Part shown: positions 1-63,000 of the stretch, one piece after another
Position numbering within the stretch: position 1 is the stretch's first letter
How the letters are laid out: each line of letters starts with the position of its first letter
Source of the DNA: Squalus acanthias
Lineage: Eukaryota
Direction: 5' to 3'
Assembly: GCA_030390025.1 (NCBI GenBank)
Contig: JASTWF010001722.1
Location: 1 to 63,000 of the forward strand
Length of the DNA: 63,000 nucleotides
The notes under the pieces: generated by a model
The model's database searches: none
What the model was told of the DNA's origin: nothing
The model's input: the letters and a program-made list of their open reading frames with translations, nothing else
Position numbers and translations under genes: made by a program

Positions 1-384
1 GCTGAGGATATTAAATGGGATGGGGAGGAGTTTACGATGTTCGATGCATATATCGTAATTCACAAAGGGAGCCTGAAGCAAACAGGAGAGCAGTTCTGTT
101 ATTTGAAATAAATAATATCTTCACCAACTTCTTCGAAAAGCAGTGGTGCAATGTGAGAAGCCAAGAGTTTACTTTGCAATAAATCCTCAGATTTTCTGAT
201 AAAATTCCAAAACCACACACAGTTTTAGATGGCTGCCTTTATTAATGATTATTGTTTTTTATTCAATACACTGATGCTTTGCTTCCAAAATTGAAAAGAC
301 ATTTCTCTACATGACATCTCACAACACACATAAGAAAACATACAGACTGCGCAGTTAAGTGACAAGTGACCATTAACAGAGATG

Positions 385-3260
385 AACGCGAGGTGATGCA
401 CTTTGGTAGGAAAATATAACATCATGAGGGTAGTGCGGTTGATGTTGTGTTTGTGGACTTTCAAAAGGCGTTTGACAAAGTACCACATGACATAACTGTT
501 CATAAAATTGTAGTCCATGCGATTAATAGGACAGGGCAGCATGGATACCAAATTGGCTAAGGGTCAGAAAGCAGAGAGTCGTGGTGGCCGGTTGTTTTTC
601 AGTCTGGAGGGAATTATACAGAGGTGTTCCCCAGGGGTCGCTATTAGGACCAGTGCTCTCTTTGATATATTTTAATGACCTAGAGTTGGGTATAGAGGGC
701 ATCAAAACTCTGAAATGTAGCACACAATGAGGAGGATAGTAACAGACTTCAGGAGGACGTAGACTGACTGGTCAACAAGAGAACATAAGCAATAGGAGCA
801 GGAGTTGGCCATTCGGCCCTTCAAGCCTACTCCACCATTCAATACGCTCCTGGCTGACCTTCGGTTTCAAAGTCATTCATGCAACACCTTCTAACTGACC
901 CTCATTCCTGCATATAAACGTATCTCCTTACTCAGTTTACAGGCATATTTTCCATTTGCAGAATAAATTATAATTGGAGCCGAAATCAAGACACTAAATG
1001 CCAAGAACATTTGGCTGGGTCTTTACCCTTATAAACTGTTCCTCAGGCTGGAGGGATTGAGAGCTTCAGAGACGTCCCTGACATGATCCTACACTTCTCT
1101 GTGGCGTTTCTTTCGGAATCCAATCCCTTTGTTTACAGCATAACCCAAACTCTGATTCAATTAGGCAGACACTGGGCAGATTCTATTGAACACAGAGAAT
1201 TGTGAAGTGAAAAATGAGAAGAGGCAATGTGATCTCAATGGTGTAACTGTAAAGGGAGTGCAGGAACAGAGGGAGCTAGGCATGTATGTACACTAATCTT
1301 TGAATGCGGCCCGACAATTTGAGAAGTATGTTAATAAAGCATACGGGATCCTTCGCTTTATTAATAAGCAGTAGAGTACAAAAGCAATGAAGTTATGCAA
1401 AAACATTATAAAGCACTGATTAGGCTTCAGCTGGAGCATTGTGTCTAATTCTGGACACCACACTTTAGGAAAATGTCACGGCCTTGGAGCGTGTGCAGAA
1501 TAGATTTACTGGAATGGTACCAGGGACAAGGGACTTCAGTTATGTGGAGAGACTGGAGAAGCTGGGGTTGTTCTGATTAGAGCAGTGAAGGTTAAGAGGA
1601 GATTTGATAGAGGTGTTCTAAAGACTTCATAGATTTAATAGAGTAATTAAGGAGCAACTGTTTCCAGTGGCAGTGGGGTCGGTAACCAGATGACACAGAT
1701 TTAATGTGATTGGCAAAAGAACCCGAGACAACATGAGGAAGCTTTTGTTTTACACAGCGAATTGTTGTGATCTGGAATGCGCTGCCTGAAAGGGCGGTGG
1801 AAGCAGATTCAATAGTAACTTTCAAGGGGGATTTGGAAAAAATACTTGAGATAAAATAAAATACTGTGGAAAGAGCAGAGGAGTGGAATTAATTGGACAG
1901 CTCTACCAAAGAGCCGGCACAGGTCCGGTGGGCCGAATGGCCTCCATCTGCGCTGTATCATTCCATGATTCTATAATCACCGATACCTTAGAAAATAAGA
2001 AACTGAAAGTGGCAGAAGAGAAAAGGGCTATCGGGATAAAGGTGAACAAATAATTAAAAGCAGTATCACTGGACAGCAAAGCAATTAAAATGTTAACAAT
2101 GAATTGGGGTTTATTTCTAAGGCAACAGAATTCAAAAGAAGTGAAGTTGACCAGTGGTGGGAAGTGGTGTTTCACAAGGATCGGTGCTGGCAACACTTTT
2201 GTTCACCATTTACTTCAACAATTAGGACTCAGGAATCGGAAGTGCAATTTCAAACATTGTGGATGCCACCCAAATGGGGGTTTATAATTAATATAGAGGA
2301 GGACTGCGACAAAATACAGGAGGACGTTAATAAACTTGCAGAATGGGTGTGTAACTGGCAAATTAACCTCAATATAGAGAAATGCGAGGTAGTGCATTTT
2401 AATAGGAAGAATACGGAGGTCACAGACTCCTTGGAGAATAAGTTCTAAACGGGGTTGAGGGACAGAGCGATGTGAGGATACAGTTACATAAATCACTAAA
2501 AGTTGCAATGCAGGTTGATAAGGCCATAAAAACAAAGAAAGCACTGGGGTTCATTTCTGTTGGGATAGAATTGTGAAGAATAGAAGTTATGTTAAACCTG
2601 TATGGAACCTTGGTTAGACCACACTTGGTGTACTGTGAACATGGTCTCCATCTTATAAAAAGGATATAGAGGGACTGGCGAAAGTACAAACAGTATTTAC
2701 TGGAATGATAGCTGAACTGAGAGGTTATACCTGTCAGGAAAGACTGAACAGGCTGGGGCTCTTTCCTTTAGGAAAGTGAAGACCGAGGGATGATCAGATA
2801 GAGTTCTTTGAGATTATGAAAGGGTTTCATAGGGTAGATTAGAGAAGGTGTTTCCACTTTCGGAGAGACTAGAACTCGGGGCCATAGATTTAAAATAGTC
2901 ATTAATAAATCTAATAGGGAATTCAGGAGAAACCTTTTTACCAAATGAGTGGTCAGAATGTGGAACTCGTTACCACAAGGAGTAGTTGATACGAATAGCA
3001 CAGACACATTTAAAGGGGGAAAGGAATAGAATGATATTTTTACTGGGTTAGATGAAGGAGGGTGGGTGGAGGGTCGTGTGGAGCATGGACACCAACATGG
3101 ACATTTTGAGTCGAATGGCCTGTCTCTGTCCTGTAAATACTTTGCAAATTGTATTAAACATGTATAGGACCCGGGTCACGTCACACTTTGAGAACTGTGC
3201 AGAGTGATGGTCTCCATAATATAAAAAGGACATAGAAGAAGTGGAAAAAGTGCAAAAAAT
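385..3260 (+). mobile_element. Cluster of degenerate CR1-type LINE ORF2/3' fragments
   Basis: Motifs of the DFQKAFDKVPH, PQGSLLGP and VRPHLEYC types, plus CR1 3' tails (gggccgaatggcct); many stops and frameshifts; several pieces, including a short minus-strand tail at about 778-860. Confidence 0.85.
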
Positions 3261-3265
3261 ACTCA

Positions 3266-4050
3266 GAACAACAACTTGTATTTATATAGCGCCTTTAACA
3301 TAGTAAAATGACCCGAGCGATTCACGGGGGCGTTATTGAACAACACCTGACCCTGAGCCACATAAGGAGATATCTGGAAAGATGATCAAAAGCTCAGTCA
3401 AAGAGGTGAAGTTTTAAGCAGCATCTTAAAGGAGGAGGGAGATTTAGAGAAGCAGAGAGGTTTAGGGAGGGGATTCCTGAGCTTAGGGCCCAGGCAGCTG
3501 AAAGCACAGCCACCAATGGTGGAGGGTTACAATCGGGGATGTGTAAGAGGCCAGAATTAGAGGAGCACAAAGATCTCATCTCGTTAGTGTTGTGGAGCTG
3601 GTGGAGCTTGCAGAGGTAGGGAGGGCGAGGCCATGTAGGGATTTGAAAGCAAGGATGATCATTTTAAATGGGAGACATTGCCGGAACGGGAGTCACTGTA
3701 GGTCAGCGAGCACAGGGGTGGTGGTTTACCGGGATTTGGTGTGGGTTAGGTTACGGGCAGCGCAGCTTTGGATGAGCTCAAGTTATAGAGGGTGGGAGCT
3801 GGGAAGTCGGCCAGGAGAGAGTTGGTGTTATCAAGTCTAGAGCTACCAAAGGCATGGATGATGGTTTGAGGAGCAGATGAGCTGAGGCAGGGGCGAAGTT
3901 CGGCGATGTTACCGAGGTGGAAGTAAGCCGTCCTGGTGATGGAATGAATATATGGTCGGAAGATTACCCCGTGATCAAATACGACACCAATGTTGCAAAC
4001 AGTAAACTGGTGCTTATAACAGGGATGGAGTCGGTGGCTTGGCAACGGAG
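3266..4050 (-). mobile_element. L2-clade LINE 3' fragment
   Basis: ORF 3746-4045 reads NIGVVFD...ITRTAYFHLGNIAELRPCLS...IIHAFGSSRLDNTNSLL, typical of the L2 ORF2 C-terminus; ends in an L2-type tail (minus ggcgctatataaatacaagttgttgtt). Confidence 0.85.
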
Positions 4051-4099
4051 TTTGTGAAGGGGGCCAATAGCATCGGTCTTACAAATATTTAGTTGGATG

Positions 4100-4565
4100 G
4101 CACCAGAACTGAAAGATTGCAGCTATCGGGAAAGATTGAACAGGTTGGGCCTTTCTGCTATAGAAGAGAGAGGACTTAGATGAGGCCTGATAGAGATCTT
4201 GAATATTATGAATGGGTTGAACAGGTTAGATGTGGAGAGTATGTTTACACTTGTGGGAGAATGCAACTCTTGGTGTTATAAATTCAAGATAGTTAATAAT
4301 AAATTCAATAGGGAAATAAGAATGCAATTTCTTTACTCAGAGAGTGGTTAGAATGTTGACCTCACTACCACAGGAAGTGTTTGAGGAAAATAGTTTAGAT
4401 TCTTTCAGAATGAAACTAGACGAGTAAATGAGAGAAAGGGGAATAGAAAGATATTCTGAGAGGCTGAGATGAGGTAGATGCAATGAGAGGAGACTGGTGT
4501 GAAGCATAAACACCAGCACAGACTGATTGGGCCGAATGGCCTGTTTGTGTGCTGTATATTCCATG
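4100..4565 (+). mobile_element. CR1 LINE 3' fragment
   Basis: Decayed FFTQRVVRM-type coding sequence followed by a tail ending gggccgaatggcctgtttgtgtgctgta. Confidence 0.8.
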
Positions 4566-4906
4566 TAATATAATCCTCTGAACTGCAGCTCAGCTCTGTC
4601 TGCCTACCTACTGACGAGGCTCTCACTCTGGAAGCTGCGAATGAATTGCTGTCCTCAAAAGCTGAAGGGACTCTTTACAGAAGAGCTCAGAGTGAAAGCA
4701 GCAAACTAGTGGTCCTGTCCTGAAAGACAATGTGGGAAATGTCAGTCAGAAACAGTGCCGAGTCCTAAACACAGTGTTCGCCCCGCCGTTGGCTGTGTCT
4801 TCAGATCTCCAGCGATTGCTGGTGTAATTTAGTGGATGGCAGTCTGGGGCTGAATATTACATTCCTGGGCTGGAAACACTGGGAGCCGCCTCTGGGCTGC
4901 GCTCAG

Positions 4907-5814
4907 TTATTTCTGATTATTAATGAATTGAATCATTGAGGTAAGCGGATATTTCACCGCCCTCTTCACCTGCTCTCTGAACTTGGACTGGGTCACCCCA
5001 TAAATAAATGTGTTTGTGCAGCAAATTAAATTCCGCAGCATAAATCCGACTTTTTGAAAGATATATAAAGAATCAGTGTAATAAAGGGGATCTATTCCTA
5101 TAATGTTATAATATAAGAATTCTATAACATTCACCAGCCACAGCAGTATGAAGCTGCCGGATATGGTGAAGAGTAAAATCATAGACTTCCTTCTGCTCTC
5201 CATCTCTGGGTCTATGCCATTCTCTGCCTTGCTCTCACCCCTCAGTCCCTTACGGACTCGACTGGCCACTAAAATGTGTCTGACTGTCAGAGCGTTGAGC
5301 AAAATAATTAAAGCGAATGGGAGCATTGGGGTTGAAACTATAACAAGCCAAATATATCCCACCCACCCGGGCTCAGTATAATAGCCTGGGATTGCGACAC
5401 AGAACCACGGCACATTGTCGATTATCCACCTGGATTGATATGTAAAGTAGAACGGAACGTCTTTTAAACAGTGCAGAATGCCGCTTGTTGCTAGAACCAC
5501 AGCCGCAGTTTTCCCGGTGCAATATTTATTTTTCAGCTTCTGGCAACAAATGGCCACAAATCGGTCAAAGGTGAAAGTGACGGTGAACCAGACAGAACAG
5601 TCTGTGGCTGCACGGGCCAGGACAGCGATAACACTGCACACAGGGGTGATGTCCAGGAAAGACAATGGAAAATAATAGAAATTGATCTGCCTCAGTATGA
5701 CCTCAGTGACAATGGTCAGGAGATCCGCCGCTGCCATGGCCACCAGATAGCAAGTGGTGCAGGTGGAGAGCCCGCACTTTCCCCGGGAAAGGATCACAAT
5801 CGCCAGCAAATTCA
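4907..5814 (-). CDS. GPR139-like: GPR139/GPR142-like class A orphan GPCR, exon 2 (end of TM1 to stop; 302 codons)
   Basis: Open frame VNLLAIVILSRGKCGLS...YLVAMAAADL...FTFDRFVAIC...LPF...MESRRKS...NTFIY...KFREQ; acceptor ttttacAG at 5816-5815; TAA at 4909-4907. Confidence 0.93.
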
Positions 5815-5888
5815 CTGTAAAACACAGAAGGGACAAGAGACTGGAAATTACTGTTCACACATTCTCCGTGTCTGAGCCCAGACAGTAA

Positions 5889-7546
5889 GGGCTGGATTTT
5901 AACATCCCATTGGGGTCGGGTTAGAGGTGAAAATTGAACAATATCCTCCCGACCCCAACCCGCCTCCAACCCGCCCGCTTCCGAGTTTAACGGAGACGGG
6001 ACAGGGGGCGGGCAGCGAACCGCACCCAGGAGGCGGGTTCGCAAGTTAAAAATATTAATGATGCGAGGAGCCTCTGATTTAACCTGTTTTACAGGTTTAA
6101 CTACGGCTGGCCGGGCTCCCTGGGCCTCAGGAATGATTTCAACCCAACCCCCGAAGCTCTATCCTTCGCCCGAGCACCGCATGTATAGAAACCTGGGGAC
6201 GGGTTTGAACTTTTCCAAAACTGGGTATTGTACACACCCCCCAGGAACCGTCGAACCACCGGGAACGGTCAAACCCCCGTGTCTGGTCACAACCCCGGGA
6301 CAGGTCAAACACCCGGAACTGGTCAAATCCCCGGGACTGGTCAAAACCCCCGGACAGGTCAAACCCCCAGAACTGGTCAAACTCCCGGAACCGGTCAAAC
6401 CCACCGGGTCTCGTCAGAACCCCCGGACAGGTCAAACCCCCAGGACCGGTCAAAATCCCGGGACCGGTCACAACCCCGGGACAATTCAAACCCCCAGAAC
6501 CGGTCAAACCCCCGGGACCGGTCACAACCCCGGGACTGGTCAAACCCCCGGGACTGGTCAAACCCCCGGGTCTGGTCAGAACCCCGAGACTGGTCAAACC
6601 CCTGGGACCGGTCAAACCCCCGGGACTGGTCAAACCCCCGGGACTGGTCAAACCCCTGGGATCGGTCAAACCCCCGGGACCAGTCAAACCCCCCGGGACT
6701 GGTCACACTCCCGCGACTGGCCAAACCCCCGGGACCGGTCAAACCCCTGGGACCGGTCAAACCCCTGGGACTGGTCAAATCCGCGGGACCAGTCAATCCT
6801 CTGGAACCGATCAAACCCCCGGGATTGGTAAAACCGCCGGAACTGATCAAACCCCCGGGACCGGTCAAACCCCCGGGACTGGTCAATCCTCCGGGACCGG
6901 TCAAACCCCCGGGACTGGTCAAACCCCCGGGAGCGGTCAAACCCCCGGGACCGGTCAAACTCCCGGTACCGGTCAAACCCCTGGGACAGGTCAAACCCCC
7001 GCCACCGGTCAGACCCCGAGGACTGGTCAACCACTGAGACCGGTCAAACTCCCGGGACTGGTCACACCCCCATGACCGGTCAAACCCTCGGGACCGGTCA
7101 CACCCCCGGGACTGGTCAAATACTCGGGACCGCTGAAACCCCCGGGACCGGTCAAACCCCTGGGACTGTTCCCACCCCCGGGACCGGTCACACCCCAGGA
7201 CTGATCAAACCCCCAGGACTGGTCAAACCTCCGGGACCGGACAAATCCCCTGGTCCATGATCGGACACACCGCTAGATCAGAAGCCCCATCGGACCCAGT
7301 TTCATCTATCGAACCTACCTGGTCCAGCCCCGGAGTCCCCCCACCCCGTCCGACTGGAAGCCCGACTGTCAATCAGGCTGACTTCCGGGATGGGGAAGCA
7401 GTCAAGGACAAAGGACATACGCTGTGGAGTTAAGACACACCAACGTCCGGGAATACCTGGACTTACAGGTATCCTGTCTGATATTCCGCATCCACCCCGC
7501 TCCCTCCGGCCATCGTACATAACCCGCCTCTCTTAATATCCAGGCG
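5889..7546. mobile_element. Putative non-autonomous DNA transposon (Harbinger-like ends) with internal minisatellite
   Basis: Left end TAA|GGGCTGGATTTTAA; degenerate inverted copy TTAATATCCAGGC at about 7533-7545; GC-rich non-coding interior. Confidence 0.5.
6238..7258. repeat. 18-bp GC-rich minisatellite (CCCCGGGACCGGTCAAAC)n, about 55 copies
   Basis: Visible directly; explains the PGTGQT/PPGPVK ORFs. Confidence 0.95.
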
Positions 7547-10392
7547 GACATATATGAGAAAATGCAAAATACTGAGACTGCTGTAAAACTGATAAGAACA
7601 TAAGAACATAAGAAATAGGAGCAGCAGTCGGCCCTTCGGACCTTCGAGCCTGCTCCGCCATTCAATGAAATCATGGCTGATCTTCTGCCTCAATTCCATT
7701 CACCGGCACTATCGACATATCCCTTGATGCCCTTACTAGTCAGGAATCTATCGACTTCTGTTTTGAATATACATAAGAAATAGGAGCAGCAGTAGGCCCT
7801 TCGGACCTTCGAGCCTGCTCCGCCATTCAATGAAATCATGGCTGATCTTCTGCCTCAATTCCATTCACCGGCCCTATCGACATATCCCTTGATGCCCTTA
7901 CTAGTCAGGAATCTATCGACTTCTGTTTTGAATATAACCAATGACTGAGCCTCCACAGCCCTCTGGGGTATAGAATTCAAAAGATTCGCCACCATCCTTG
8001 TAAAGAAATTTCTTCGCATCTCAGTCCTGAATGGCCTACCCTTTATCTTGAGTCTGTGGCCCCTGGTTCTAGACTCCCCAGCCAAGGGAAACATTCTCCC
8101 AGCATCCACCCTATCAATCCAGTAATAATTGTGTACGCTTGAATGAGATCCCCTCTCATTCTTCTGAATTCAAGAGAATACATGCCTAGTTTACTCAATC
8201 TCTTCTCATACGGCAGTCCCGCCATCCCAGGAATCAATCTCGTGAGCCTTCGTTGCACTCCCTCTAAGGCCAGTATATCCTTCCTTTTGTAAGGAGACCA
8301 CAATTGTGCACAGTACTCCAGGTGTGGTGTCACCAAGGCCCGATATAATTGGAGAAAGACTTCTTTACTCCTGTACTCAAATCCTCTTGTAATGAAGGCC
8401 AGCATACCATTTGCCTTCCTAATGGCTTGCTGCACCTGCACATTCACTTTCAGTGACTCATGTACAAGGACACCCAGGTACCTTTGAGCATCTGCATTCC
8501 CCAATCTTTCACCATTTAGGAAATACGCTGCCTTTCTGTTTTTTCTACCAAAGTGGATAACTTCACATTTATCCACATTATAATTCATCTGCCATGTTCT
8601 CGCTCATTCACTGAGACTGTCGAGATCCTTTTGAAGCCTCTTCACATCCTCTTCGCAACTGACACTGCCCCCTAGTTTTGTATCATCAGCAAATTTGGAA
8701 ATGTTACATGTAGTCCCCTCATCCATATCATTGATATAGATTGTGAATAGCTGGGGCCCAAGCACCGATCCTTGCGGTACCGCACTAGTCACAGCTTGCC
8801 AAACTGAAAAAGCCTCGTTTATACCTACTCTTTGTTTTCTGTCTGTTAACCAATTCTCAATCCATGGTAGTATATTACCCCCCATTCCATGTGCCCTAAT
8901 TTTGTTCACCAACCTTTTGTGTGGGACCTAGAGTCATAAAGTCTCGATTTTTACAGCACAGAAAGAGGCCCTTCGGCCCATCGTGTCCGCCCCGGCAATC
9001 AAGCCCTGTCCATTCTAATCCCATTTTCCAGCACTTGGTCCGTAGCCTTGTATGCTATGTCGTTTCAAGTGCTCATCTAAATGCTTCGTGAATGTTGTGA
9101 GGTTTTCTGCCACTACCATACATTCAGACAGTGAGTTCCAGATTCCAACCACACTCTGGGTGAAAAAGTTTTTTCTGAAAGTCCCTCTAAACCTCCTGCC
9201 CCTTACCTTGAAACTATGTCCACTGGTTTTATGAACCCTCTACTGATGGGAAAAGGTCCTTTCTATCTACCCTATCTGAGCCCCTCATAATTTTGTACAC
9301 CTCAATCAGGTCCCCCCTCAGTCTTCTCTGCTCTAAGGAAAACAACCCCAGCCTGTCCAGTCTCTTTTCATAGCTGAAGCGCTCCAGCCCAGGTAACATC
9401 CTGGTGATTCTCCTCTGCACCCTCACCAATGCAATCACATTCTTCCTATAGTTTGGCGACCAGAACTGCACACAGTATTCCAGCTGTGGCCTAACTAGCG
9501 TTTTGTACAACTCCATCATACCCTCCCTTCTCTTATATTCTATGCCTCGGCTAATGAAGGCAAGTATCCCATATGCCTTTTTAATCAACTTATCTAGCTG
9601 TCCTGCTGCCTTCAGAGATCTATGTACATGCACGTCCATCTGATCCTCTGTACTCCCTAGGATCCTACCATTCATTGTGTATTCCCTTGCTTTTTTAGAT
9701 CTCCAAAAATGCCTCATCTCACACTTTTCATGGTTAAATTCCATTTGCCACTGTTCTGCCCATCTGACCAACCCGTCTATATCGTCCTGTAGCCTGAGGC
9801 TTCCCTCCTCGCTATTTATCACTCCACCAATTTTCTTGTCATCTGCGAACTTACAGATAATACCTCCTACATTCATATCTAAATCATTAATGTAAACAAG
9901 AAACAGCAAAGGACCCAGCACCGATCCCTGCGATACATCACTGGACACAGGCTTCCAGTCACAAAAATAACCTTCGACCATCATACTCTGCCTCCTGCCA
10001 CTCAGCCAATTTTGGATCAAATGTGCCAAATTGCCCTGGATCCCATGGGCTCTAAATTTCTTGACCAGTCTCCCATGCGCGACTTTGTCAAAAGCCTTAC
10101 TAAAGTCCATGTAGACTACATCAACAACACTACTCTCATCCACACACCTAGTCACCCCCTCGAAAAATTCAATCACATTGGTTAGACATGATCACCCCCT
10201 GGCAAAGCCATGCTGACTATCCTTGATTAATCCTTGCCACTCTGAGTGGAGACTAATTCTGTCCCTAAGAACGTTTTGCAATAATTTCCCTACCACTGAT
10301 GTTAGGCTCAATGTCCTGTAATTCCCTGGTTTATCCCTACTACCATTCTTGAATAATGGTACTACGTTAGCTGTCCTCCAGTACTCTGGCAC

Positions 10393-23499: not shown

Positions 23500-24663
23500 A
23501 TGGCAGGGCACCTCATTCCCTTGGAATGCACATCTTGTGCCATGTCTGAACTCCATACGCTTCCCGTGTCCTGGACAACCACATGTGCAGGAGGTGTCGT
23601 CAGCTGGAGGAGCTCGAACTCCGGGTTCAGGAGTTTGAGCAGCAACTGGCGTCACTGCGGTGCATCCGTGAGGCTGACAGCTACTTCGATAGCACGTTTC
23701 AGGAGGTGGTCACACAGCAGCTTAAGAGTGTGCAGGCAGAGAGGGGATGGGTGACTGCCAGACAGATAAGGAGGAATAGGCAGGTCGTTCATCTCACTCT
23801 CTAACCGGTATTCAGTTCTAAATACTGGAGAGGGCAATGGTTCATCTGGCGAGTACAGCCAGAGCCAAGTCCAGAACTAGTCCAGTGGCTCAGCTGTACA
23901 GTGGGGGGCGGGGGAGAAAGACCAGGAAAGCAGTAGTGATAGGGGATTCAATAGTTAAGGGAACATACATGCGTTTCTGCGGCCGCAGGCGTGAATCCAG
24001 GATGATATGTTGCCTCCCTCGTGCCAGGGTCATGGATGTCACTGAGCAGCTGAAGAACATTCTGAGAGGGGAGTTTGAACAGCCAGAGGTCATTGTCCCT
24101 ATCGGTACCAATGACATAATTAGAAAGAGGGATGAGGATCTGTAGGCAGATTTTTGGGAGCTAGGAAAGAGATTAAAATCAGGACTTCAAAGGTAGTAAT
24201 CTTCGGATTACTCCCAGTGCCTTTGCTGTTGAGTATAGTAATAGGAGGATAGAGCAGATGAATGCGTGGTTGGAGAGATGGTGCAGGAGGGAGTGCCTTA
24301 GAATCCGGGGACATTGGGACCGGTTCTCGGGGAGGTGGGACCTGTACAGGCCAGACAGGTTGCACCACAACAGGACCGCAACCAATGGCCTCGACGGGGA
24401 GGGGGCTGGGTTGCTCGTAGTGTTGGGGAGGTTTTAAACTAATTTAGGCAGTGGGTGGGCACCAGGCTGTAGGATTAGAAAGGAGAAACAAGGTGCACAA
24501 AGGATTGGGAGAGACGGATAGTGCAAGAGTAACAAAGAATAAGTTCCTATGTGGGGTCAGACGAAGAGAATACAAGACAGGTTTACAGTGCACGAGTGTA
24601 AATGCATGAAGTGTGGTTAATAAGGTTGGTGAGCTGCAGGCGCAAATAGCCACATGGAAATAA
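23500..24663 (+). mobile_element. CR1 ORF1 (Zn finger + SGNH-like) and start of ORF2, frameshifted, cut off by a MITE
   Basis: CTSCAM, CRRC, AVVIGDSIV, IGTND motifs. Confidence 0.85.
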
Positions 24664-24664
24664 T

Positions 24665-25407
24665 GGGCCAAAAATTCATCCCGCGACGCGAGAGTACGCA
24701 CTGCGTACTCTTGCATAAATCCCACTCCAATTGCCGGTTTTCTGCATGCCCTGCGCATGCGCTGAAAACCGGCAATTGGTCTTTTGAAAAGGGGGCGGTT
24801 CCTCGGTGCATCGCGTGCGCGCTACAGGCTGCGCGCACGCTGTGCACTTCATGCTTTGGATGCGCAGGTAAGTACGGAAGATTTTAGAAATGGAAAAAGG
24901 AGGAGTAAGACCCACTTTTAACAAGGTAAGTAGTGAATTAAGTATTTTTTTGAATTTTTTTTAACAGGTATATCTTTTTTAGAGACTTTAAAGACAGGTA
25001 AGTTCATTTTTATAACTTTTTAAAAGATTATAAATTTTTTCAAAAATTTAATTTTTTATTTAAAATGGTTAATTTATTTAACTATACTTATTTTATTAAT
25101 GTGATGGTTTTTTTTTAAATTTAATTGAGGTTTAGCTGTTATTTTGGGGGGGTGTAAGATTCATAGATTTCACAGCACGTAAGTGAAACTTATGAATGGA
25201 AGATGGTGTGCTGCCATTGGCTCTAACTGAGTCACGTGATCCCACAGCTCAACGAATTCACTACGCCGGTGGGATACGCAAGCACTGCCCAGCTGATGTC
25301 TGGAACATCAAGTTCGTGCGAGCTGGATCTGAAAAAGCACAAGCGGAGTGAGAGATCGCGGGGAAGCCTTACACCTGCGGGAACAGAGCGAGATCAATTT
25401 CTGGGCC
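24665..25407 (+). mobile_element. Harbinger-associated MITE, copy 1
   Basis: Ends GGGCCAAAAATT ... AATTTCTGGGCC; collinear with copies 2 and 3. Confidence 0.8.
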
Positions 25408-25410
25408 CAT

Positions 25411-26151
25411 GGCCCAAAAATTAGTCTCAGTACGCGAGAGTACGCACTGTGTGCTCTCGCGTATTCGTCTCCAATTGCCGGTTTTCTGCATGCACTGCGC
25501 ATGCGCTGAAAACCGGCACTTGGTGATTTCAAAAGGGGCGGTTCCAAGGTGAACCACGTGCGCGCTACAGGCTGCGCTCACGCAGTGCACTTAGTGCTTT
25601 GAACACGCAGGTAAGCATGGAAGATTTTGCACATAAAGAAAGGAGGCGTAAGATCTTCTTTTAACAAGGTAAGTAGTTAATTAAGTATTATTTTAAATTT
25701 TTTTCAACAGGTATATCTTTTTTAGAGACTTTAAAGAAAGGTAAGTTTATTTTTATAAATTTTTAAAAGATTTTAAATTTTTTCAAAAATTTAATTTTTT
25801 GTTTAAAGTTGTTAATTTATTTAACTATACTTATTTTATTAATGTGATGGTTTTAAAAAAAAATTAATTGAGGTTTAGCTGTTCTTTTGGGGGGGTATAG
25901 ATTCATGGCTTTGACAGCCCTTGCTGTCAAAACTATGAATGAAAGATGGTGTGCTGCCATTGGCTCTAACTGAATCACGTGATCCCACAGCTCGCACGAA
26001 TTAACTGCGTCTGTGGGATACGCACACACTGCACAGCTGCAGCCTTGAAACTAAAGTTCGTGTGAGCTCGGAAGGAAAAGGCAGGTGCGCAGTGAGATAT
26101 CGCGGGGAAGCCTTGCCCCCGCAGGAAGGCTCCGTCTTTAATTTCTGGGCC
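25411..26151 (+). mobile_element. Harbinger-associated MITE, copy 2 (tandem with copy 1, 3-bp spacer CAT)
   Basis: Ends GGCCCAAAAATT ... AATTTCTGGGCC. Confidence 0.82.
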
Positions 26152-26607: not shown

Positions 26608-27447
26608 TGTGAGTCAGTCAAGTGACCTCTCAGAGTTCTTGGACAAGACACAAATAGGCAGCAGCCAGTATGTTTGAGCAATGGATCAACATTTATTAAG
26701 CTTACAGCGTAATTAATACTTAACATGAGGCGATGGTAAAACGAATCGCTCGCAGCACTTGGTCTCTGGAGCCCTTCGGACACAGACAACGTCGTCGTAA
26801 GTCTGTTCCTTTTCTACGCAGCAAATCTTTGTGGGAATTTGTTCTTTGAATATCGAGGTTTTAACCCATTCCTTAGCAACAGTTCGTTTGGCCAGTGTCC
26901 ATATATGGTCTTTAAAAAAGTCAGTTTGCTTAACTGGTTCTAATGGTCAAAATGCCATTGTCTCTCAGGTTTAGGCTGGTAACCTGGTCCCTCCTTTTCC
27001 AGTACATTTCCACTAACTCTGCTGCACTGTCGTGTTAAATTGTTTATAGCCTTTCACCAAATTGGAATTTACCATGTCTCTTTCATTTCATAGCCTCCCC
27101 GGTACAAGGCATTTATACCAAGGGCCCATATCAGCGCTGTTTCACTTGTCTTGAGGTATCCAGACTATCTCACTTTAATCTACCAGATAAATTCCTTAAC
27201 ATCCATGATCTCTCTCATTTTATGCCCTTATTCTAATTAGCCTTTAAATATTGTTGCAATTAGTTTTGTTAAGCGAATTCTAAGTTTTATTCAGCATCAT
27301 AATATGTGATTTAAAAATTTGACCTTCATTTGCAGCCTGTAGCTACACCTTATCAAAGCTTAGTCAAAACTGCATTTGGCTGTCGCCGCAGTGCATTCTG
27401 AACAAGTCTTAGCTTTTTAGTTACCCAGGATAATTATGGGTAATATT
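26608..27447 (-). mobile_element. 5' LTR of an LTR retroelement/ERV (upstream boundary uncertain)
   Basis: Ends in CA two nt before the PBS; AATAAA at 26697-26692; TATAAA candidates at 27048 and 27117; perfect CArG box at 26899-26908. Confidence 0.7.
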
Positions 27448-28342
27448 GGCCCAGAAATTAAACATGCATGGTTCCCGCGGGGGTAAGGATTCCCCGCGTT
27501 TTGGCACTCCGCACCTACCTTTTTGCTCCGGGCCCACACGAACTTTAGTTTCAAAGGCTCTCTCTGTTGGAACAGTGCAGTGCTTGCGTGACCCAGAGGC
27601 GCAATTAATTTGTGCGAGCTCTGGGATCACGTGATTCAGTTAGAGCCAATGGCAGCACACCATCTTTTATTCATAGTTTTGACGGCAAGAGCTTTCAAAG
27701 CTATGAATACTACACACCCCCAAAAGAACAGCGAAACCTCAATTAAATTTAAAAAAAGCCATCACATTAATAAAATAAGTATAGTTAAATAAATTAACCA
27801 CTTTAAATAAAATATTAAATTTTTGAAAAAATTTAAAATCTTTTTAAAAGTTATAAAAATAAACTTACCTTTCTTTAAAGTCTCTAAAAAAGATAAACCT
27901 GTTGAAAAAAAATTAAAATAATACTTAATTAACGACTTACCTTATTAAAAGGTAATCTTTTCTGTGATAGATAGTAGATTGGCGGCTAGGATCAGATCAG
28001 CCATGATCTTATTGAATGGCGGAGCAGGCTCGAGGGGCCGATTGGCCTACTCCTGCTCCTACTTCTTATGTTCTTATGTTAAAAGGGGGTCCTACGCCTA
28101 CTTTCTTTGTGTGTAAGATCTTCACCAACTTACCTGCGCGTTCAAAGCTGAAAAAAACTAAGTGCACTGCGTGCGCACAGCCTGGAGTGAGCACGCGGTT
28201 CACTTAGGAACCGCCCCCTTTGCAATACACAAAGTGCCGATTTCCCGCGCATGCGCAGTGCATGCAGGAAACCGGCAAATCGGGATCTAATACGCAAGAG
28301 TACACATTGCGTACTCTCGCGTATTAGGTTTAATTTTCGGGT
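27448..28342 (-). mobile_element. Harbinger-associated MITE, copy 3 (inverted), carrying a CR1-tail insertion at 27953-28078
   Basis: Reverse complement of copy 2; the insertion is flanked by the 8-bp duplication TTAAAAGG. Confidence 0.82.
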
Positions 28343-50600: not shown

Positions 50601-51684
50601 GGGGCGAGTAAACCAATCTGTATTATATAAAGTCAGTTGTTATTAGTAAAAGTCAGCTTCTAACTCACTGTCCGAAAATGTTAAAATTGCCCCATGGAAA
50701 TCATATTGTAAAATAAATATTTTTTCATCGTATTATCTTTAAATAGGTTTTGGGGTAAATATGTCCCTTTTATTCGTAAACTAACAGGTTGTATTCTAAC
50801 AGTCCAGATCTAAACTGGTGATTGAATCCTCTCCTGGTTTCTCCCGGTTTTGTTTCTGATGGAGCTGAGGCCCATTGGTTGAAATGTTGCATTCCACCCG
50901 CTCTGTGCACACTTACACATAAACACACACAGACTTACACACAAACACACATTAACACACTGACACAGAATATTACACATACCCAGATTAAAATACACTC
51001 AACACAGAAACATAAACTAAAGCAAAACAAGTGATAGTCATACATACATCGGCAAACACTAAAGCGCACAGAAACATCAGGCTATAGAAGAATGTAGAGT
51101 TAAAGTGCACTTTTTGAACAATCTCCAACGATTGTACTGAATAAATAATTCCTGATAACAATACATCTCAAATTTTTCTATTCCGGTCCTACACATACAC
51201 TGAATCAAAGTTCCTAGTTGGAAACTGAGACAATTTAATTATGTTCAGAGCATTGCCATAACTAATAAAAATAAATAAGCTTATAGCTCACATCTGATCT
51301 CTTACCCTGTCACCTTGACACTCTCCAAATAAGTAGCTATCTAAACCTATCGTTAAAATAATCGATATCAATCAGTAAACCTGCCTCGATATTTCATCAT
51401 ATTAGTCCCGAACGATAGATCGTAAGAAATTGATGGAAAATCACGTTTAATAATATCACGTTTTCCAACACGGACTACATGAGGATCGTAAAGGAAGAGC
51501 GACTGTGGAGTTAGGAACAGAGATAGATGCTGAGAGTTATTCACTTCACACAAGATATATATTGAAAATAAAATTAGAGAAAAAACTAAGACCTTAAGGA
51601 AAGGAAAAGAGAATACATAATAATAAAATGATATCCTGGATTAATAGACGATCTGAATATATTTCCTCCTCTACATCCCCGTAG

Positions 51685-51812
51685 ATTCCTCAGAACACAT
51701 CTGGATTGAAGACTTTGAGGACGAGAGCGAAAACATCAGGACAATCGCTTCCACATTCATCATCCTGTTCTTCCTCAGCATGTCCTACAGCGCTGCCGTC
51801 ACTCTGGTGAAG
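51685..51812 (+). pseudogene. IGHM: IgM transmembrane exon TM1
   Basis: cgtAG|(D)SSEHIWIEDFEDESENIRTIASTFIILFFLSMSYSAAVTLVK|GTGAG; CART-type motif; phase matches the Cmu4 donor at 42977. Confidence 0.9.
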
Positions 51813-51952
51813 GTGAGAAGATTCAATCCACTCACACTTCGAACTGACTGAAGCGGTTTGACAAATCTCTAAAAGTTTCATTGATAAAAACCCTGAGCTA
51901 AATGTCCCAGACCACTAAAACTCTGCTACATTCTTTTATCCCTCTTTTACAG

Positions 51953-52414
51953 GCCAGGAGATGGTTGAATTTTGGACGCCGTGGATTTTCCTCATCTTTT
52001 TATTAACGTCGCTGTGTTCTGAATATAAAATATGTCCTCTTGGTGAATCTCAAAGTAAAATGCCCCCAGTTAAAAGATCCGAATCTATAGCTGAGAAAAA
52101 TACAAACGGGATTTCCGTCTTTCTGTTTGAAATGTGTGAGTTAATCGTGGCTATAATGTAAATGTATCTTAGAGTTGTTTGAATATTTCACGTGTAAATA
52201 AGTCACTTTTCTCATTCCTAATTCACAATTGTTCCCTACCCTTTATGCGGAGCCCCTGTTTTCTCTCTCTGGTGTCTGTTGCAGATGTACAGATAGCTGG
52301 CAGCTCAGACCGACTGTGTTCAGTTCTCAATGTGACGCTCAGTTATTATATTCACTTTGTGTTACCTTATTAAACCGTTCTCTGTAAATCCTACTCTGTG
52401 AAATTGTTAATAAA
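51953..52414 (+). pseudogene. IGHM: IgM TM2 exon and 3' UTR
   Basis: Polypyrimidine tract + ttacAG 140 nt after TM1; reads ARRWLNFGRRGFSSSFY*; AATAAA at 52409. Confidence 0.6.
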
Positions 52415-52789
52415 TCTGGAATGACAAATTGACTAACTTAGACTTTGCTGATTTCCTTTCTCCGAGGTCCTCCACACCACTCTATTTTCCCTCTCGCACT
52501 TTCTTTATTTCCCCGACAGGTATCTTTCATCCTTCCTGTCTGGGTTGTCATTGAACTCAAGTCTCTTCGGTTAAGGAGCCGCTGCGTCACCCAGTGTCCC
52601 ATCAGAGAAAATACACCTTTACCCAGACATTTTTATGTCAAGCCCGAAAGGTGCAATGACTGCACAGTGACCAAGTAGTCTCCTCTAATATTATGATCTG
52701 TAGAGTCACATGTCAGGTTCTATTAACGAGCAGGTCGCTGCTCCATCACAGCCTGATACAGTGCAGTACATGGCACAGTAAATCTCCCA

Positions 52790-55640: not shown

Positions 55641-56155
55641 CTTGCCCCTCGCTGTCTCATCTTTTTTTCGGAGCCTCCCGACCACGGGAAGATCTCCAGA
55701 GATTCCTGGTTAGACCCGAGAATCTTCCGCCAGTTTCCTTCTGATGTGGCGATGCTTTTCCTCTAAACTCATGGGGCCCAGGCGTGAGGTCTCCTGTAGT
55801 ATAAAAGCACAACGAGCTGCGGGAGGGAAAATCAACGGATATACTGAAGGGGCTTGGAAGTAAGTTTGGGAATGGATGGATTTTGTGATTAAACTCTGTC
55901 TCTGCCCAAACTAACTCCCGCCCCTCTAAGCTACGATTACCCTTAGCCATCGCTGTTTCTCCCCGTCTCTCTGTTCTGTCTGCAGGCTCGGCTTTTCTCA
56001 GGAGGTGCAGGGCTTCTTTAAGAGGCTGCACAAACTGGGGCTCTTTATCGCTGGACGAAGGCTGGAGACGGCCCGTGACACCCTGACCCTGAATCAGTCG
56101 GAGAATCTGCCAATCAGGGTACTCCGACGGACTGAAACGATTGTGGCGTCATGCA
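55641..56155 (-). pseudogene. Unidentified spliced coding relic (candidate exons 56155-55941 and 55816-55641)
   Basis: AG/GT-bounded segments joined in phase 1; one stop in each exon; no family recognised. Confidence 0.35.
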
Positions 56156-57874
56156 CTGCAGGGCAAACCAGCGGCTATGTTTGTCTTTCGTTACCTTGAT
56201 GATCTTTGTGTGACGTGCTGTCGGCCATGAATGCCTGACGTTACCGGCCAGGTTTGTGTAACGTGCTGTCGGCCATGTTTTTGTGACGTAACACGCTGCG
56301 CATATCTGCCGTTAATTTAATTAAAATAGCTCGATTAAAAGGAGAATAACTTCAATTTCCTTCAAATTAAAGCAGTTCGATCTTGATCGATATAAGTAAA
56401 AGTTTGGCAGGTGAGAGAATGAAAGAGCAGTCGTTAATGCGGTTGGTGAGGTACGCACGTGCGAACAGTTCTCCCAGAATGCAACGCGGCCCGTGTCACA
56501 ATGAGGCGTTTCACTGCCGCTGTGAATTGTGGGAGCCGCAGCCCTCCAGGGCCGAGTCATTAACTGAGTGAATCCAAACCCAACCTCCTTCAGCTGGGAG
56601 CTGCCCGGGTTGTTGATCCCAACCGACTGCGTGTTTCCTATTGAGCCGAGAGAATCTCTGAGCAGATTAAACGTCTAATGCAGGAATTGCATTAAAACAT
56701 AGCTAAGTGGCCTACTCCTGTTCCTATGTTCCTGTAAATTAAAGGAGGTGTCGACCGCTCAGCAACTCAATTGGTGAATGACGGATTCAACCGAAGAAAG
56801 GGAAAGAAGAAACTTTACTGGTCCTTGTGGAAACAGGCGGACAATCAATTTAAGCCTTAGGGTGAAATATCAAAACGGCAAAAGATACAATTTTACGCTA
56901 GGAATGCATTTTCACACTTCTCACCAGATCATCTTAAACCTGACTTTTAATTTGCAGAAGTGACCAAGGGACCATCGAGTGAGACGGAGACAGGCTGGAG
57001 AAGCTATTCCTCTGAGGACAGGTGAACTCACCAATTTAACTCGAGTGAATTCTGCGAGGACAAAACGATTTTAAATCACTTAGTTGCTGGTGGGTGACCT
57101 TATTTCCAGTAACGTTAGTTCAGTGGTAAATGGCCGACTCTGTGTGTGAACTCCTGTATAACACGTGCCGAGATCGACGGCCGGGTGATTCCATGGGATT
57201 TGCTGCCATCGAGTGGAAATAATTAGACTTACTCCCCGGAATTTTGCCTTCAATTCGGTGAAGATAATTCAATGTTACCCTTGTCAGACATTCAGAAGGA
57301 GATTTTGCCAAAACGGTTGTGACAATTAAATAGTTTTATTAACTACAAGACAAAGCACAGTTAATAAGTCAGATTACTAACAATCTTATCAGCTAAGGCC
57401 ACAGATACAATAGAAGTGATATTACCCGTTCCTAATGTGAGCAGCGTCGACATCTTGCTCCTTGACTGCCTCAAGCTCGTATCTTTCAGGTTTTTTGATC
57501 TTGTTTGTGCTGTGCCTGTTCTAATCTTAGCAACGTCTTGTTAACGTGATGGAAACATGTCAACAACTTCTGCTCATTTTTAATTAATACTTAACACGCT
57601 AACCCATTTAATCATCATGTAAATTATATCATTATCTTTAGTGTTTCTGCGCGACGTTATCTAGTCTTTGTGCATTGTTCTTTACACGGTTTGCACCTCA
57701 CCATCTCAACTTTTCTGATACAGTCTCTATTAGGCTTGTTTTCAGTCGGTCTTCTGACTATCTGGCCGGTGCCCAGAGCACACAATGTCTGTCCTTGCAG
57801 ATTATTAGTCCATTAATGTTTGTTCATCGGCTTCTAATCTTGTCCTCAATGTGACCTCCCGGACCGGCTTAAAA

Positions 57875-58474
57875 TACAGATTACATAGTATTACACAGGA
57901 TATACGGCACCGAAGCAGGCCATTCGGCCTAACCAGTCCATGCCGGCGTTTATGCTCCACTCGAGCCTCCTCTCATCTTTCCTCATCTAACTCTATCAGC
58001 ATAACCCTCTGTTCCCTTCCCCCTCATATGCTTGTCTAGCCTCCCCTTAAATGTATCTATACTATTCGCTTCAACCACTCCCTGTGGTATCGAGTTCCAC
58101 ATTCTCACCACTCTCTGGGTAAAGAAGTTTCTCCTGAATTCCCTATTGGATTTCTTGGTGACTATCTTATATTGATGGCCTCTAGTTATGCTCTTCCCCA
58201 CAAGTGGAAACACTCCCTCTGTATCTACTCCATCAAAACAATTCATAATTTTAAAGACCTCTATTAGGTCACCCCTCAGCCTTCTTTTTTCAAGAGAAAA
58301 GTGACAAAACCTGTTCATCCTTCCCTGACAGGTATACCCTCACATTTCTGGTATCATCCTTGTAAATCTTCTCTGCACCCTCTCCAGTGCCTGAATAAAT
58401 GTTTTATAATATGACGAACAGACCTGTACAAAGTGCTCCAAGTGTGGTCTAACCAAGGTCCGATGCAAATTTAG
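57875..58474 (-). mobile_element. CR1 3' fragment
   Basis: FSLEKRRLRGDLIEVFKI...FFTQRVVRMWN; cut off by the Harbinger end. Confidence 0.88.
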
Positions 58475-59686
58475 AACCCGAAAATTAGACCTAATACGCG
58501 AGAGTACGCACTGTGCACTCTCGCGTATTAGGTCTCGAATTGCCGGTTTCCTGCATGCACTGCGCATGCGCGGGAAACCGGCATTTCGTGTGGCTTCACC
58601 TGAAGGGATCTCCGTGGAATCGCGTGCGCAGGAGATTCTGCGCGTGCGTCAAGAACTTGGATATTTTACTGAATGGTGGTAGTGTGTGTAAGCTCCTAGC
58701 AATTACACATGTAAAAAGCAGGAGTAAGCCGTTTTCGATGGCTCCGGAGACAGCAGGAGGAATACATATTTTAGCAGTGGGATTACTTAAGTGAGCTTTT
58801 GTAAATCGGAAAGCCAGCAAAGTCTTAGGTAAGTTTGCAATTTTAAAAAAAGTTTAAAAACGGGTTTTGACCATTTGGAGTAGTATAGCAACTGTGGGTG
58901 TGTACAAGGCATATTGATTAAGGTTTCTATCATAAATGTGAAAATGAATGTTTAAAAATGAACTATTTACATTTCAAAAAGTTTTAAAGATGAAAATGAT
59001 CATCAATTATATTCCTCTAAGTAAGTATGTATGTATGTATGTATGTATGTATGCATTAATTTATGAAAATGTTACAGTTCTGGAAAATCATCTCGGGCCA
59101 TGAGGCGGGTAGACGTGTTCCCAATCCGATAGTGCACGTTTCCCACCATAGCCAGACCTGATTTTACAGCCACTCACTTTACTAAAGTTACTTTAACAAC
59201 TATTCCCATTTTTTCATTGCAACTTTCTGTTTAAAGAGGAAGCCTGTGAGGGAGAAAGCTGCCCTTTCACAATCAATTCCTGTTCCTCTGTGGGATTTTG
59301 TATCAGAGAATTTTAGACGCCAGGCGACAAAACAGACGGAGGAACCAAGCCCGTTTCCTCGTGAGAAGGAGAAACTACTACCCACCAAATAGAGTGTACA
59401 GGGAGAGGCTGTCATTTGAGATGCTGTCGGAGGAGTTGTGTGTGAGGAGGCTGCGCTTCAGTAAAGAGTCAATGGCCGAATCTGTGACATGTTAAAGGAT
59501 CACCTTCAAACACGCTCGAAGAGCCGCACTGCATTATCAGTGAGCATGAAGGTAACCACAGCACTGAACTTCTTTGCAAGTGGGACTTTTCAGGCAAGCA
59601 CCGGTGACATTTTCAACATATCCAAGAATGCTGCGAGGGCCAGCATTCACCAGGTCACAGAAGCCATTTTCCGTAGGGCTTCAGAG
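58475..59686 (+). mobile_element. Truncated PIF/Harbinger transposon: left end + 5' part of a HARBI1-like transposase
   Basis: Left end matches the MITEs; RVYRERLSFEMLSEELCVRRLRFSKE / TALSVSMKVTTALNFFASGTFQASTGDIFNISK...IHQVTEAIFRRA is a Harbinger transposase N-terminus; one frameshift near 59490; DDE core absent. Confidence 0.85.
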
Positions 59687-60141
59687 ATCGTATTTGAATG
59701 GATTCACCACATTTTAACTCCGTGTCTCCCATTCATTCTGATTTTGCTGTTCAATGCTCTGACCGTCAGACACATTCTAGCGGCCAGCAGAGCCCGCAGG
59801 AGACTCCGGGCCCACAGCAATGGGGAGAATCAGAGTGACCCAGAGATGGAGAGCCGGAGAAAGTCCATCGTCTTACTCTTCTGTATCTCGGGCAATTTCA
59901 TCCTGTTACATGTGTTATTACTGAGAACTTTCCTCGCTGTCCAGATTGCGAAAGTTACTTATTTCACATGTTCGATTTCAATGAATCAAATTTTATTCTG
60001 GAGGAAAGCGGATATATGCTACAGTTTTTGAGTTCCTGCATCAACCCGTTTATTTATGCAGGGACCCAGAGTAAATTCAGAGAGGAGTTAAAGAATGGGG
60101 TGAAATATCCACTGAGTCTCATTGTTAAATTATTGAAATGA
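59687..60141 (+). pseudogene. GPR139-like GPCR 3' fragment (TM5-TM7), frameshifted
   Basis: WIHHILTPCLPFILILLFNALTVRHIL...DPEMESRRKSIVLLF; after a frameshift near 59970, SGYMLQFLSSCINPFIYAGTQSKFREELKNGVKYPLSLIVKLLK*. Confidence 0.9.
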
Positions 60142-61305
60142 TGAAAATAGTAAAGTATATCATGAATTGTTACTTATATTCCATGTTGTGTCTTCTTGTC
60201 CCTGTCAGACATGGCCTCCCCTCCCAGCTACACAGCCATTCACTCTAAGATCCTTACCCAATGTGAATTTAATAATGTATGAGGAACACTGCATCAGCGC
60301 ACAATTCAGTGTTGTAATCTGTTCTCAGTTAGTTTCCAGTTCTCTTGTCGGTGCTGACTCGGGCCTCGTACATTCCCACCAGCCCCGAGAGCCCTAGAGT
60401 ATCTCTACATTCATGTGGATTCCGACCTCTGATCGGTGATTGGATATCAAGTTTAACTGTTTAATGAAGGGACCCAATGTCCCTCCTGGGAATTGTTTGG
60501 ATCTTGAGGCTCGGACACGCTCTGAAATGGGAGCACGCGCTGTCCCCACGCATTGTTCTCCGCTCACTCGGCACCGCCCCACAGCCGCACTCCTGTGTCC
60601 AGAAACACAGGAACAGAGGAATTGCTGGAGTATTAAGACACTTTCTGCTCTTTTTATTGGACAATTTGGACGACACCCACAGTGTCATTAAACAAACTAA
60701 AATTAATCTAACGAACTTTATAAAGGGTCACAAACAATTATCATAAAAATCATACAAATAGGAATCTGATCAAAGTAAATGAGAATATTATCTTCGCAAT
60801 CTTTTATACACCCAAGTCTAGTTCGCTTTCTACCATCCTGGTAGTCCCCCGATACAATGATAATAATGTTGACTAATCACAGCGATCAATCTCTATCGAT
60901 TAGTCTACAACAGGCCCAGATATGAGGTGAGGAAAACCCCAGTGGTGGAGAGCTTTAGGAAACATTGGACCACAGTCACCTGTTCCTCCCAAGTACACTG
61001 CACTTACCACATGTCATGTCTCTAATTACTCACATACTGTGTCCCCAAGTGGTATTCCAGGAATGATATCCAATTAATTTGTATTTGAATGAATCAACAC
61101 TAACTGCTTCCACCGTCTCCCTAGGCAGCCTGTCCATAGATTGACCACTCACTCACTGAAATACTGTTTCAGCAGATTGGGTTTGAATTGACCTCCTTCA
61201 AGCCCAGGCCGCGTCCTCTGGTTCTACTGTCTGGACAAGGTGAAATAACTTGTCGTGCTCTACATTATCTGCTCCATTTAGAATTCTAAAAACAGCAATC
61301 ATATT

Positions 61306-62481
61306 ACATAGAAACACAGAAACACAGAAGATAGGAGCAGGAGTAGGCCATTCGGCCCCTCGAGCCTGCTCCGCCATTTAATGAGATCATGGCTGATCAT
61401 CCAAATTCAGTACCCTGTCCCTGCTTTCTCCCCATATCCCTTGATCTCTTTAGCCTTACGAACTATATCTAACTCCTTCTTGAATATATTTAATGAATTG
61501 GCCTCAACTGCCTTCTGTGGCAGATAATTCTACAGGTTCACCACTCTCTGGGTGAAGAAATTCCTCCTCATCTCAGTCCCAAATGGCTTACCCCTTATCC
61601 TTAGACTGTGACCCCTGGTTCTGGACTTACCCGCCATCGGAAACATGCTTCCTGCATCTAGTCTGTCTAGTCCTGTTAGAATTTTACAAGTTTCAATGAG
61701 ATCCCCTCTCATTCTTCTAAACGCGAGCGAATAAAAGTCTAACCGACCCAATCCCTCTTCATACGTCATCCCTGCCATCCCGGGTATCAGTCTGGTGAAT
61801 CTTCGCCGCAGTCCCTCCATTGGCAAGAACATCCTTCCCCAGATAAGGCGACCAAAACTGCACACAATATTCAAGGTGTGGTCTCACCAAGGCCCTGTAA
61901 ACCTGCAGCAAAACATCCTTGTTCCTGTACTCAAACCCTCTCGCTATGAAGGCGAAAACACCATTTGCCTTCTTAACCGCCTGCTGCACATGCATGCTTA
62001 CCTTCAGCGATTGGTGCACAAGGACAAACAGGTCTCGTTGCACCGCCCCTTTTCCCAATCTATTGCCGTTCAGATAATAATCTGCCTTCCTATTTTTGCC
62101 AACGAAGTGGATAACCTTACATTTATCCACATTATGCTGCATCTGCCATGCATTTGCCCACTCACCCAACCTGTCCAAATCATACTGGAGTTTCTCTGCA
62201 TCCTCCTCACAACGCACACGCCCACCCAGCTTTGTGTCGTCTGCAAACTTGGAGATATTACATCTAGTTCCCTCGTCTAAATCATTAATATATATTGTGA
62301 ATAGCTGGGGTCCTAGCACCGATCCCTGCGGTAACCCACTAGTCACTGCCTGCCACTCAGAAAAAAGACCCGTTTATTTCAACTATTTTCTTCCTGTCTG
62401 CCAACCAGTTCTCTATTCAAGTCAGTACCTTACCCCCAATCCCATGTGCTTTAACTTTGCATGCTAATCTCTTATGCGGGA
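61306..62481 (-). mobile_element. CR1 ORF2 3' fragment
   Basis: ORFs 61530-62346 with RT motifs; tail at about 61310. Confidence 0.92.
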
Positions 62482-63000
62482 GATAGAAACATAGAAACAT
62501 AGAAAATAGGTACAGGAGTAGACCAATCGGTCCTTCGAGCCTGCACCGCCATTGAATGCGTTCATGGCTGAAAATGCTACCTCAGTACCCCATTCCTGCT
62601 TTCTCGCCATACCCCTTGATCCCCCTAGTTGTGAGTGTTATATCTAACTCCCTTTTGAATATATTTAGCGAACTGGCCTCAACAACCTTCTGTGGAAGAG
62701 AATTCCATAGATTCACCACTCTCTGGGTGAAGAAGTTCCTCCTCAGCTCAGTCTTAAATGGCTTCCCCTTAATCCTTAGACTGTGACCCCTGGTTCTAGT
62801 TTTCCCTAACATTGGGAACATTCTGCCCGCATCTAATTTGTCTAAACCAGTCAGGATTTTAAATGTCTCCATAAGATCCCCCCTCATTCTTCTGAACTCC
62901 AGAGGATACAAGTTCAGTTGACCCAATCTTTCTTGATATGTCAGACCGGCCTTCCCAGGAATCAATCTAGTGAACCTTCGCTGCACTCCCTCAATAGCAA
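62482..63000 (-). mobile_element. CR1 3' end, nested in or abutting the previous copy; runs off the window
   Basis: ORF 62582-62986; (tagaaaca)n tail. Confidence 0.9.

Follow-up and report, generated by a model that had tools for sequence, protein, structure and literature searches.

PIF/Harbinger two-gene transposons combine short TIRs with a DDE_Tnp_4 transposase and a Myb/SANT gene on the opposite strand, Harbinger3_DR being one example. In Pack-TIRs, as described by Tan et al. (2021), both halves of one element surround a filler of 100-5,000 bp, the breakpoints show microhomology of 1-36 bp (median 2 bp), and segmental duplications are excluded (PMC8277862). The host-transposase fusion genes of Cosby et al. 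are reported to arise by splicing, have RNA support and are under purifying selection (bioRxiv 10.1101/2020.05.07.082677).

The stretch of DNA that we analysed (the window, 63 kb) is the entire contig C826 of a 3.7-Gb assembly, and at its position 59686/59687 a two-gene Harbinger of 4.6 kb, of which the left 1.2 kb are present, passes into TM5-TM7 of a GPR139-like receptor gene. The parent element has the gene and TIR organization outlined above, whereas only its left quarter is present in the window. Like the Pack-TIRs of animals, this chimera has its breakpoint inside a TIR transposon, shows what may be short microhomology, and was likely made by transposition-independent repair to host sequence; unlike them, it lacks the right half of the element over at least 39 kb, its receptor part keeps its own flank, and its copies are segmental duplicates. 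It would work like the transposition-independent joins of the single-copy Pack-TIRs (PMC8277862), while falling outside the group itself: the host sequence is not enclosed by both element ends with a filler below 5 kb, as in Pack-TIRs and Pack-MULEs, and the extra copies do not have new flanks with target-site duplications, the flanks being common to all three. With the host-transposase fusion genes it shares transposase and host codons in one frame, but, in contrast to them, it was joined at the DNA level, both of its sides are frameshifted, and no sign of selection is seen; an intact in-frame fusion from the start codon is not found in any of the three copies. No report of this junction or of the capture of a receptor by Harbinger appeared in literature listings on GPR139 in sharks and cartilaginous fish, Harbinger chimeras and animal Pack-TIRs, as judged at the level of the listings.

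We regard the locus, with a probability of about 88%, as a dead chimeric pseudogene composed of a Harbinger fragment and the 3' half of a GPR139-like gene; a single transposition-independent repair event was likely its origin, and segmental duplication brought it to three copies. The features of the window that bear on this reading are as follows (positions, strand, description):

4910-5854, minus: intact GPR139-like exon with a 315-aa open frame (Pfam 7tm_1, E 5e-17)
24663-25407, plus: self-contained 745-bp Harbinger-family MITE
25409-26151, plus: self-contained 745-bp Harbinger-family MITE
27447-28341, minus: self-contained 745-bp Harbinger-family MITE with an 87-bp SINE-like insert
42349-63000, plus: segmental duplication common with contig C988 (two copies), ~99% identical to both outside tandem repeats
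57881-58476, minus: 3' fragment of a retro-element, presumably CR1-like, with the Harbinger inserted into its end (frame 58340-58648 on the minus strand; empty sites in paralogues)
58477-59686, plus: left 1.2 kb of a young Harbinger of the autonomous type, with the left TIR lacking its first two bases and no visible target-site duplication (ends compared with full-length copies and empty sites)
58487-58535, no strand: subterminal 24-bp hairpin typical of the left end of this Harbinger family (inverted repeat I4/I2 in full-length copies; self-match 58474-58535)
59259-59495, plus: N-terminus of the transposase, in which 71 codons are homologous and the frame is then lost, with a stop after 78 aa
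59474-59686, plus: second transposase piece, 71 codons
59686-59687, plus: junction with one shared base and three exact matches in the genome
59687-59972, plus: receptor TM5, ICL3 and TM6, continuing the frame of the second transposase piece (tblastn to residues 159-267 of the intact exon)
59977-60141, plus: TM7 and helix 8 of the receptor, frameshifted by the loss of 1 bp near 59973
60142-63000, plus: native 3' flank of the receptor; in the C988 copy it is collinear over at least 12 kb with the paralogue on C3351 (blocks of 93.6-94.0% identity)

An earlier note on this DNA, made from the letters of the window, had claimed that a Harbinger left end and transposase are joined here to TM5-TM6 of a GPR139-like receptor. 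This join is real, according to the alignments and to the frame 59465-60031, which is open across the junction (...EAIFRRASE, followed beyond the join by IVFEWIHHILTPCLPF...). The further claim, that the N-terminus of the transposase runs unbroken into the receptor, holds for this frame but not from the transposase start, as the first 71 codons are in another frame. The parents overlap by one exact shared base (G at 59686) and by an imperfect 4-base overlap, a length of 1 bp being at chance level. As had been noticed before, the DDE core (residues 177-329 of the 385-aa parent frame) and TM1-4 of the receptor are both absent from the chimera; the join falls about 30 residues ahead of where the DDE domain would start, and a Pfam search found no DDE_Tnp_4 domain in the Harbinger fragment. 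The junction fragment gives a 45-50% alignment to residues 159-311 of the intact paralogue, and the receptor half is up to 95.7% identical to its closest paralogues.

Positions 58477-59689 correspond to nt 1-1225 of full-length Harbinger copies, with 91-95% identity to the closest ones. These copies are about 4.55-4.58 kb long and have 15-bp TIRs. Two of them, L039 and L048, contain 385-aa transposase frames recognized as DDE_Tnp_4 (E 2e-42 and 1e-41, respectively) and have each of their ends marked by the 15-bp TIR and flanked by the same 3 bases, both ends being intact in two of the six copies viewed; the second gene of the parent is a Myb/SANT frame on the opposite strand (minus strand of L039, PF13873, E 6e-12). 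With its DDE_Tnp_4 transposase, Myb/SANT gene, short TIRs and what looks like a 3-bp target duplication, the parent element is a member of PIF/Harbinger. The family is young and abundant: the 26-base left end has 2,213 exact matches in the genome (0 for the reversed control), and its density on C1, 0.57 per Mb (first 100 matches in 174.7 Mb), lies close to the genome mean of 0.60 per Mb, which lends weak support to the lack of enrichment described below. Another young copy (L043/L076, C636:745816-749287), which has lost 1.1 kb of its transposase (nt 828-1941) and abuts the end of an older related MITE, sits 3.3 kb downstream of a receptor gene. We considered this place as a pre-deletion array and rejected it, since the Harbinger lies downstream of the receptor, its internal deletion has a breakpoint different from the junction in the window, and the match to the window begins at the left end of the element, with no common flank.

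The left flank of the chimera belongs to a different duplicated block. Among eight of its paralogues, chosen from the top 12 matches, seven extend as far as the insertion point and lack a Harbinger at it, six of them continuing as empty sites and one carrying another insert. Within 20-30 kb downstream of these paralogues, a receptor is found on the opposite strand in three cases and on the same strand in one, and none is found in the remaining four; the same-strand receptor, which belongs to the same subfamily, lies 10.5 kb downstream of the paralogue at C3:208.4 Mb. Because seven of the eight have no same-strand receptor within this distance, a simple local deletion is not demonstrated, and the placement of the receptors implies that the join either deleted about 10 kb or more or resulted from a rearrangement that was not collinear. 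We found no allele from before the rearrangement, neither a Harbinger of full length at this site nor the exact donor receptor, and deletion and ectopic joining both stand. The one-off deletion after insertion that the earlier note had offered as one explanation is supported in the form of a one-off rearrangement, now dead, whose scar is present in three copies. At another locus (L116, on C2561 near 160.3 kb), a different retro-element is inserted at the same base as the Harbinger of the window, and this base is possibly an insertion hot spot.

On the right side, the receptor half is followed by its own 3' flank as in the paralogue on C3351, which has a receptor with its 5' half and no junction. 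Element nt 1226-4500 were not found in the 39 kb downstream of either junction copy on C988; the right TIR is missing, as had been stated, and the suggested search for a downstream right TIR yielded no right end of the chimera's own element over this distance. The only right-end match, 12 kb downstream, is part of an older MITE of 750 bp, which has two ends of its own, is separate from the Harbinger of the chimera and occurs also at the collinear place in C3351. Since the receptor half keeps its own flank and no right part of the element follows within 39 kb, it is the receptor locus that lost its 5' part, and no fragment was packed into the element. A search by exact pattern for the reciprocal junction (the 5' half of the receptor with the remainder of the Harbinger) gave 0 matches, which is a weak negative.

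The junction-spanning genome search that the earlier note had proposed shows that the junction is not single-copy. It has exactly three exact matches, in the window and at two places on C988 that are 266 kb apart, all of them inside segmental duplicates (blocks of more than 20 kb, ~99% identical). The left edge of the duplicated unit, at 42349, lies 16 kb to the left of the TIR, the edges of the duplication are not TIRs, and on either side of the chimera the three copies have the flank in common, including these 16 kb on the left. As the unit begins so far outside the TIR, the copies are segmental duplicates and were not transposed. The two C988 copies are 99.3-100% identical to each other outside tandem repeats (70 kb fetched) and 99.85% identical around the junction, and this pair could be a false duplicate of the assembly. 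A 2.1-kb segment (56084-58212) is present in the window and in one of the C988 copies and is missing from the other. Positions 110-10392 of the window are 98-99% identical to C29:16.06-16.07 Mb, whereas 42349-63000 match C988; the contig is a patchwork of duplicated blocks, or else it represents an alternative haplotype.

Both halves are frameshifted, as had been claimed, and the copy is probably dead. In the transposase, one base is deleted near 59473, and a frame begun at the native start (CTG in the window, ATG in both C988 copies) consequently ends after 78 residues, short of the junction, in all three copies; this frameshift occurs in none of 23 other distinct copies of the family. The receptor frame is broken ahead of TM7 by another loss of one base, near 59973, which is likewise common to the three. 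The close paralogue on C3351 also lacks one base a few positions from 59973; the local alignment favours an independent loss, and if the loss were a common one, the receptor would already have been broken at the time of the fusion. In the lineage of the chimera we counted 7 non-synonymous to 1 synonymous changes in the transposase half (P 0.69 against neutrality) and 11 to 4 in the receptor half (P 0.75), both comparisons being of low power, and the five closest receptor paralogues have ratios similar to that of the chimera. The changes in both halves are compatible with neutrality, as far as such counts can tell. The in-frame join is a coincidence: one in three random joins of two same-strand reading frames is in frame.

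We propose the following order of events. A young Harbinger was inserted into a duplicated block whose paralogues lack one at the corresponding site. The transposase gene would then have been broken internally and, in a repair by end joining or template switching, connected to a receptor locus with an overlap of 1 bp, so that the DDE core, the Myb gene, the right TIR and the 5' half of the receptor would have been lost, either through the deletion of at least ~10 kb or through the non-collinear rearrangement considered above. The two frameshifts, found in every copy, arose before the duplication, with their order relative to the fusion left free. Finally, the region was copied at ~1% divergence and again at ~0.15% divergence.

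The other explanation offered by the earlier note was a Pack-type capture or co-duplication unit that helps to spread the receptor family, together with the proposal to test whether the TIR family is enriched near GPR139-like loci. In 10-kb windows around a small sample of 40 receptor loci (20 of 126 and 20 of 40 top matches, not all independent of each other, L144 and L145 being near-identical), sequence of the Harbinger family, either the young element or a related MITE, is found near 5 of 40, compared with 7 of 40 evenly spaced chromosome controls (P 0.76) and 3 of 20 controls on C29 (P 1.0), i.e. there is no enrichment. Transposase remnants occur in 0 of 40 receptor windows and in 7 of 40 chromosome controls, and 0 of 40 receptor genes are enclosed by a pair of TIRs. 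An apparent enrichment in the first pass (33 of 40 receptor loci versus 22 of 40 controls, P 0.015) was an artefact of the 87-bp SINE-like insert in one MITE query and disappeared with clean queries. One locus with family matches on both sides of the receptor (L159) was rejected as an enclosing pair, as its upstream match is a 58-bp motif in a dispersed repeat and its downstream match is a self-contained MITE. The repeat in question (L159:3873-4120, about 250 bp) shares this palindromic motif with the subterminal region of Harbinger; it occurs upstream of several receptors of the same subfamily and also in random regions. Three related MITEs are indeed present upstream of the intact GPCR of the window, as had been noticed, but at 19-22 kb from its exon and all on one side. 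Two of them (24663-26151) stand head to tail, the second starting 2 bases past the end of the first, which fits insertion beside existing element ends.

A functional chimera, in which the Harbinger promoter would drive a transcript that either encodes a transposase-TM5-TM6 peptide of 180 aa or acts as a regulatory RNA on the many paralogues, seems to us very unlikely. The 5' region of the element is kept, and a frame of 180 aa that begins at an internal ATG (59489) spans the junction in all three copies; however, this frame includes neither the transposase start nor the receptor TM7, the low-powered counts give no sign of purifying selection, and the known host-transposase fusions are reportedly spliced, supported by RNA and under purifying selection (bioRxiv 10.1101/2020.05.07.082677). 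A Pfam search of the chimeric frames found no domain. In presumed-RNA contigs (runs X17 and X20 of one study, the RNA type being guessed), the transposase part is covered, with loose ends at 59686 that continue into normal transposase, and 59758-60700 are uncovered, which says nothing firm on expression.

An assembly chimera of two high-copy repeats is slightly more improbable still. Both halves are high-copy, every copy of the junction is on an unplaced contig, and the pair on C988 is nearly identical around it; yet the copy in the window differs by ~1% from this pair, the substitutions falling to the left and to the right of a junction that is itself identical, and private frameshifts are common to all. 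A junction at the same base in diverged copies argues against an assembly artefact. Among the matches listed, no contig piece from four DNA runs bridges the junction; these runs may come from another individual or species, and the best-matching ones contain fewer than half of the sampled words.

The weakest reading, that a Harbinger took up a receptor fragment and that the resulting TIR-bounded unit moved or duplicated and helped to spread the receptor family, is by now largely refuted and the least probable of all: it could draw on the internal breakpoint with 1-bp microhomology, as in many Pack-TIRs (PMC8277862), on the multi-copy junction and on the abundance of left ends, but the left TIR is damaged, no right part lies within a distance far above the Pack-TIR fillers of less than 5 kb given there, the copies extend in common well outside the TIR and were thus not transposed, and receptor loci show neither enrichment nor enclosure by TIRs.

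The receptor family itself is very large in this genome, with at least 126 loci, all at 80% identity or more (scored matches among 4,700 first-look candidates); those listed are mostly on C29 and on unplaced contigs. The only solved-structure matches of the intact paralogue are GPR139 chimeras (PDB 7vug and 9m42, E 1.5e-9), and with its 7tm_1 domain and GPR139 as the nearest solved relative it may be classified as a GPR139-like class A GPCR. It belongs to the same 7tm_1 family as human GPR139; however, the two are distant (41 bits), and the shark gene is one of a large family of paralogues. For another block of the window (51000-52500), 42 matches at 84-100% were obtained (of 86 candidates, 40 were scored), many of them at C29:6-9.7 Mb, and this block is possibly a second multigene family; a hydrophobic leader-like exon can be recognized by eye at about 51961-52054.

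It is tempting to imagine that the Harbinger promoter might transcribe the chimera into a truncated TM5-TM6 peptide or an RNA that would modulate the very large receptor family of the shark, and that Harbinger insertions might be recurrent break sites reshuffling the receptor clusters, but we consider this combination very unlikely. The chimera is a real, ordinary, dead pseudogene and not a vehicle for spreading receptor genes; it documents, as a dated case, the death of one gene in a large birth-and-death cluster of receptors, and matters little alone. Its analysis removes Pack-type spread by Harbinger as a candidate mechanism for the expansion of the receptors and points to segmental duplication instead, and this expansion is a more interesting object than the chimera.
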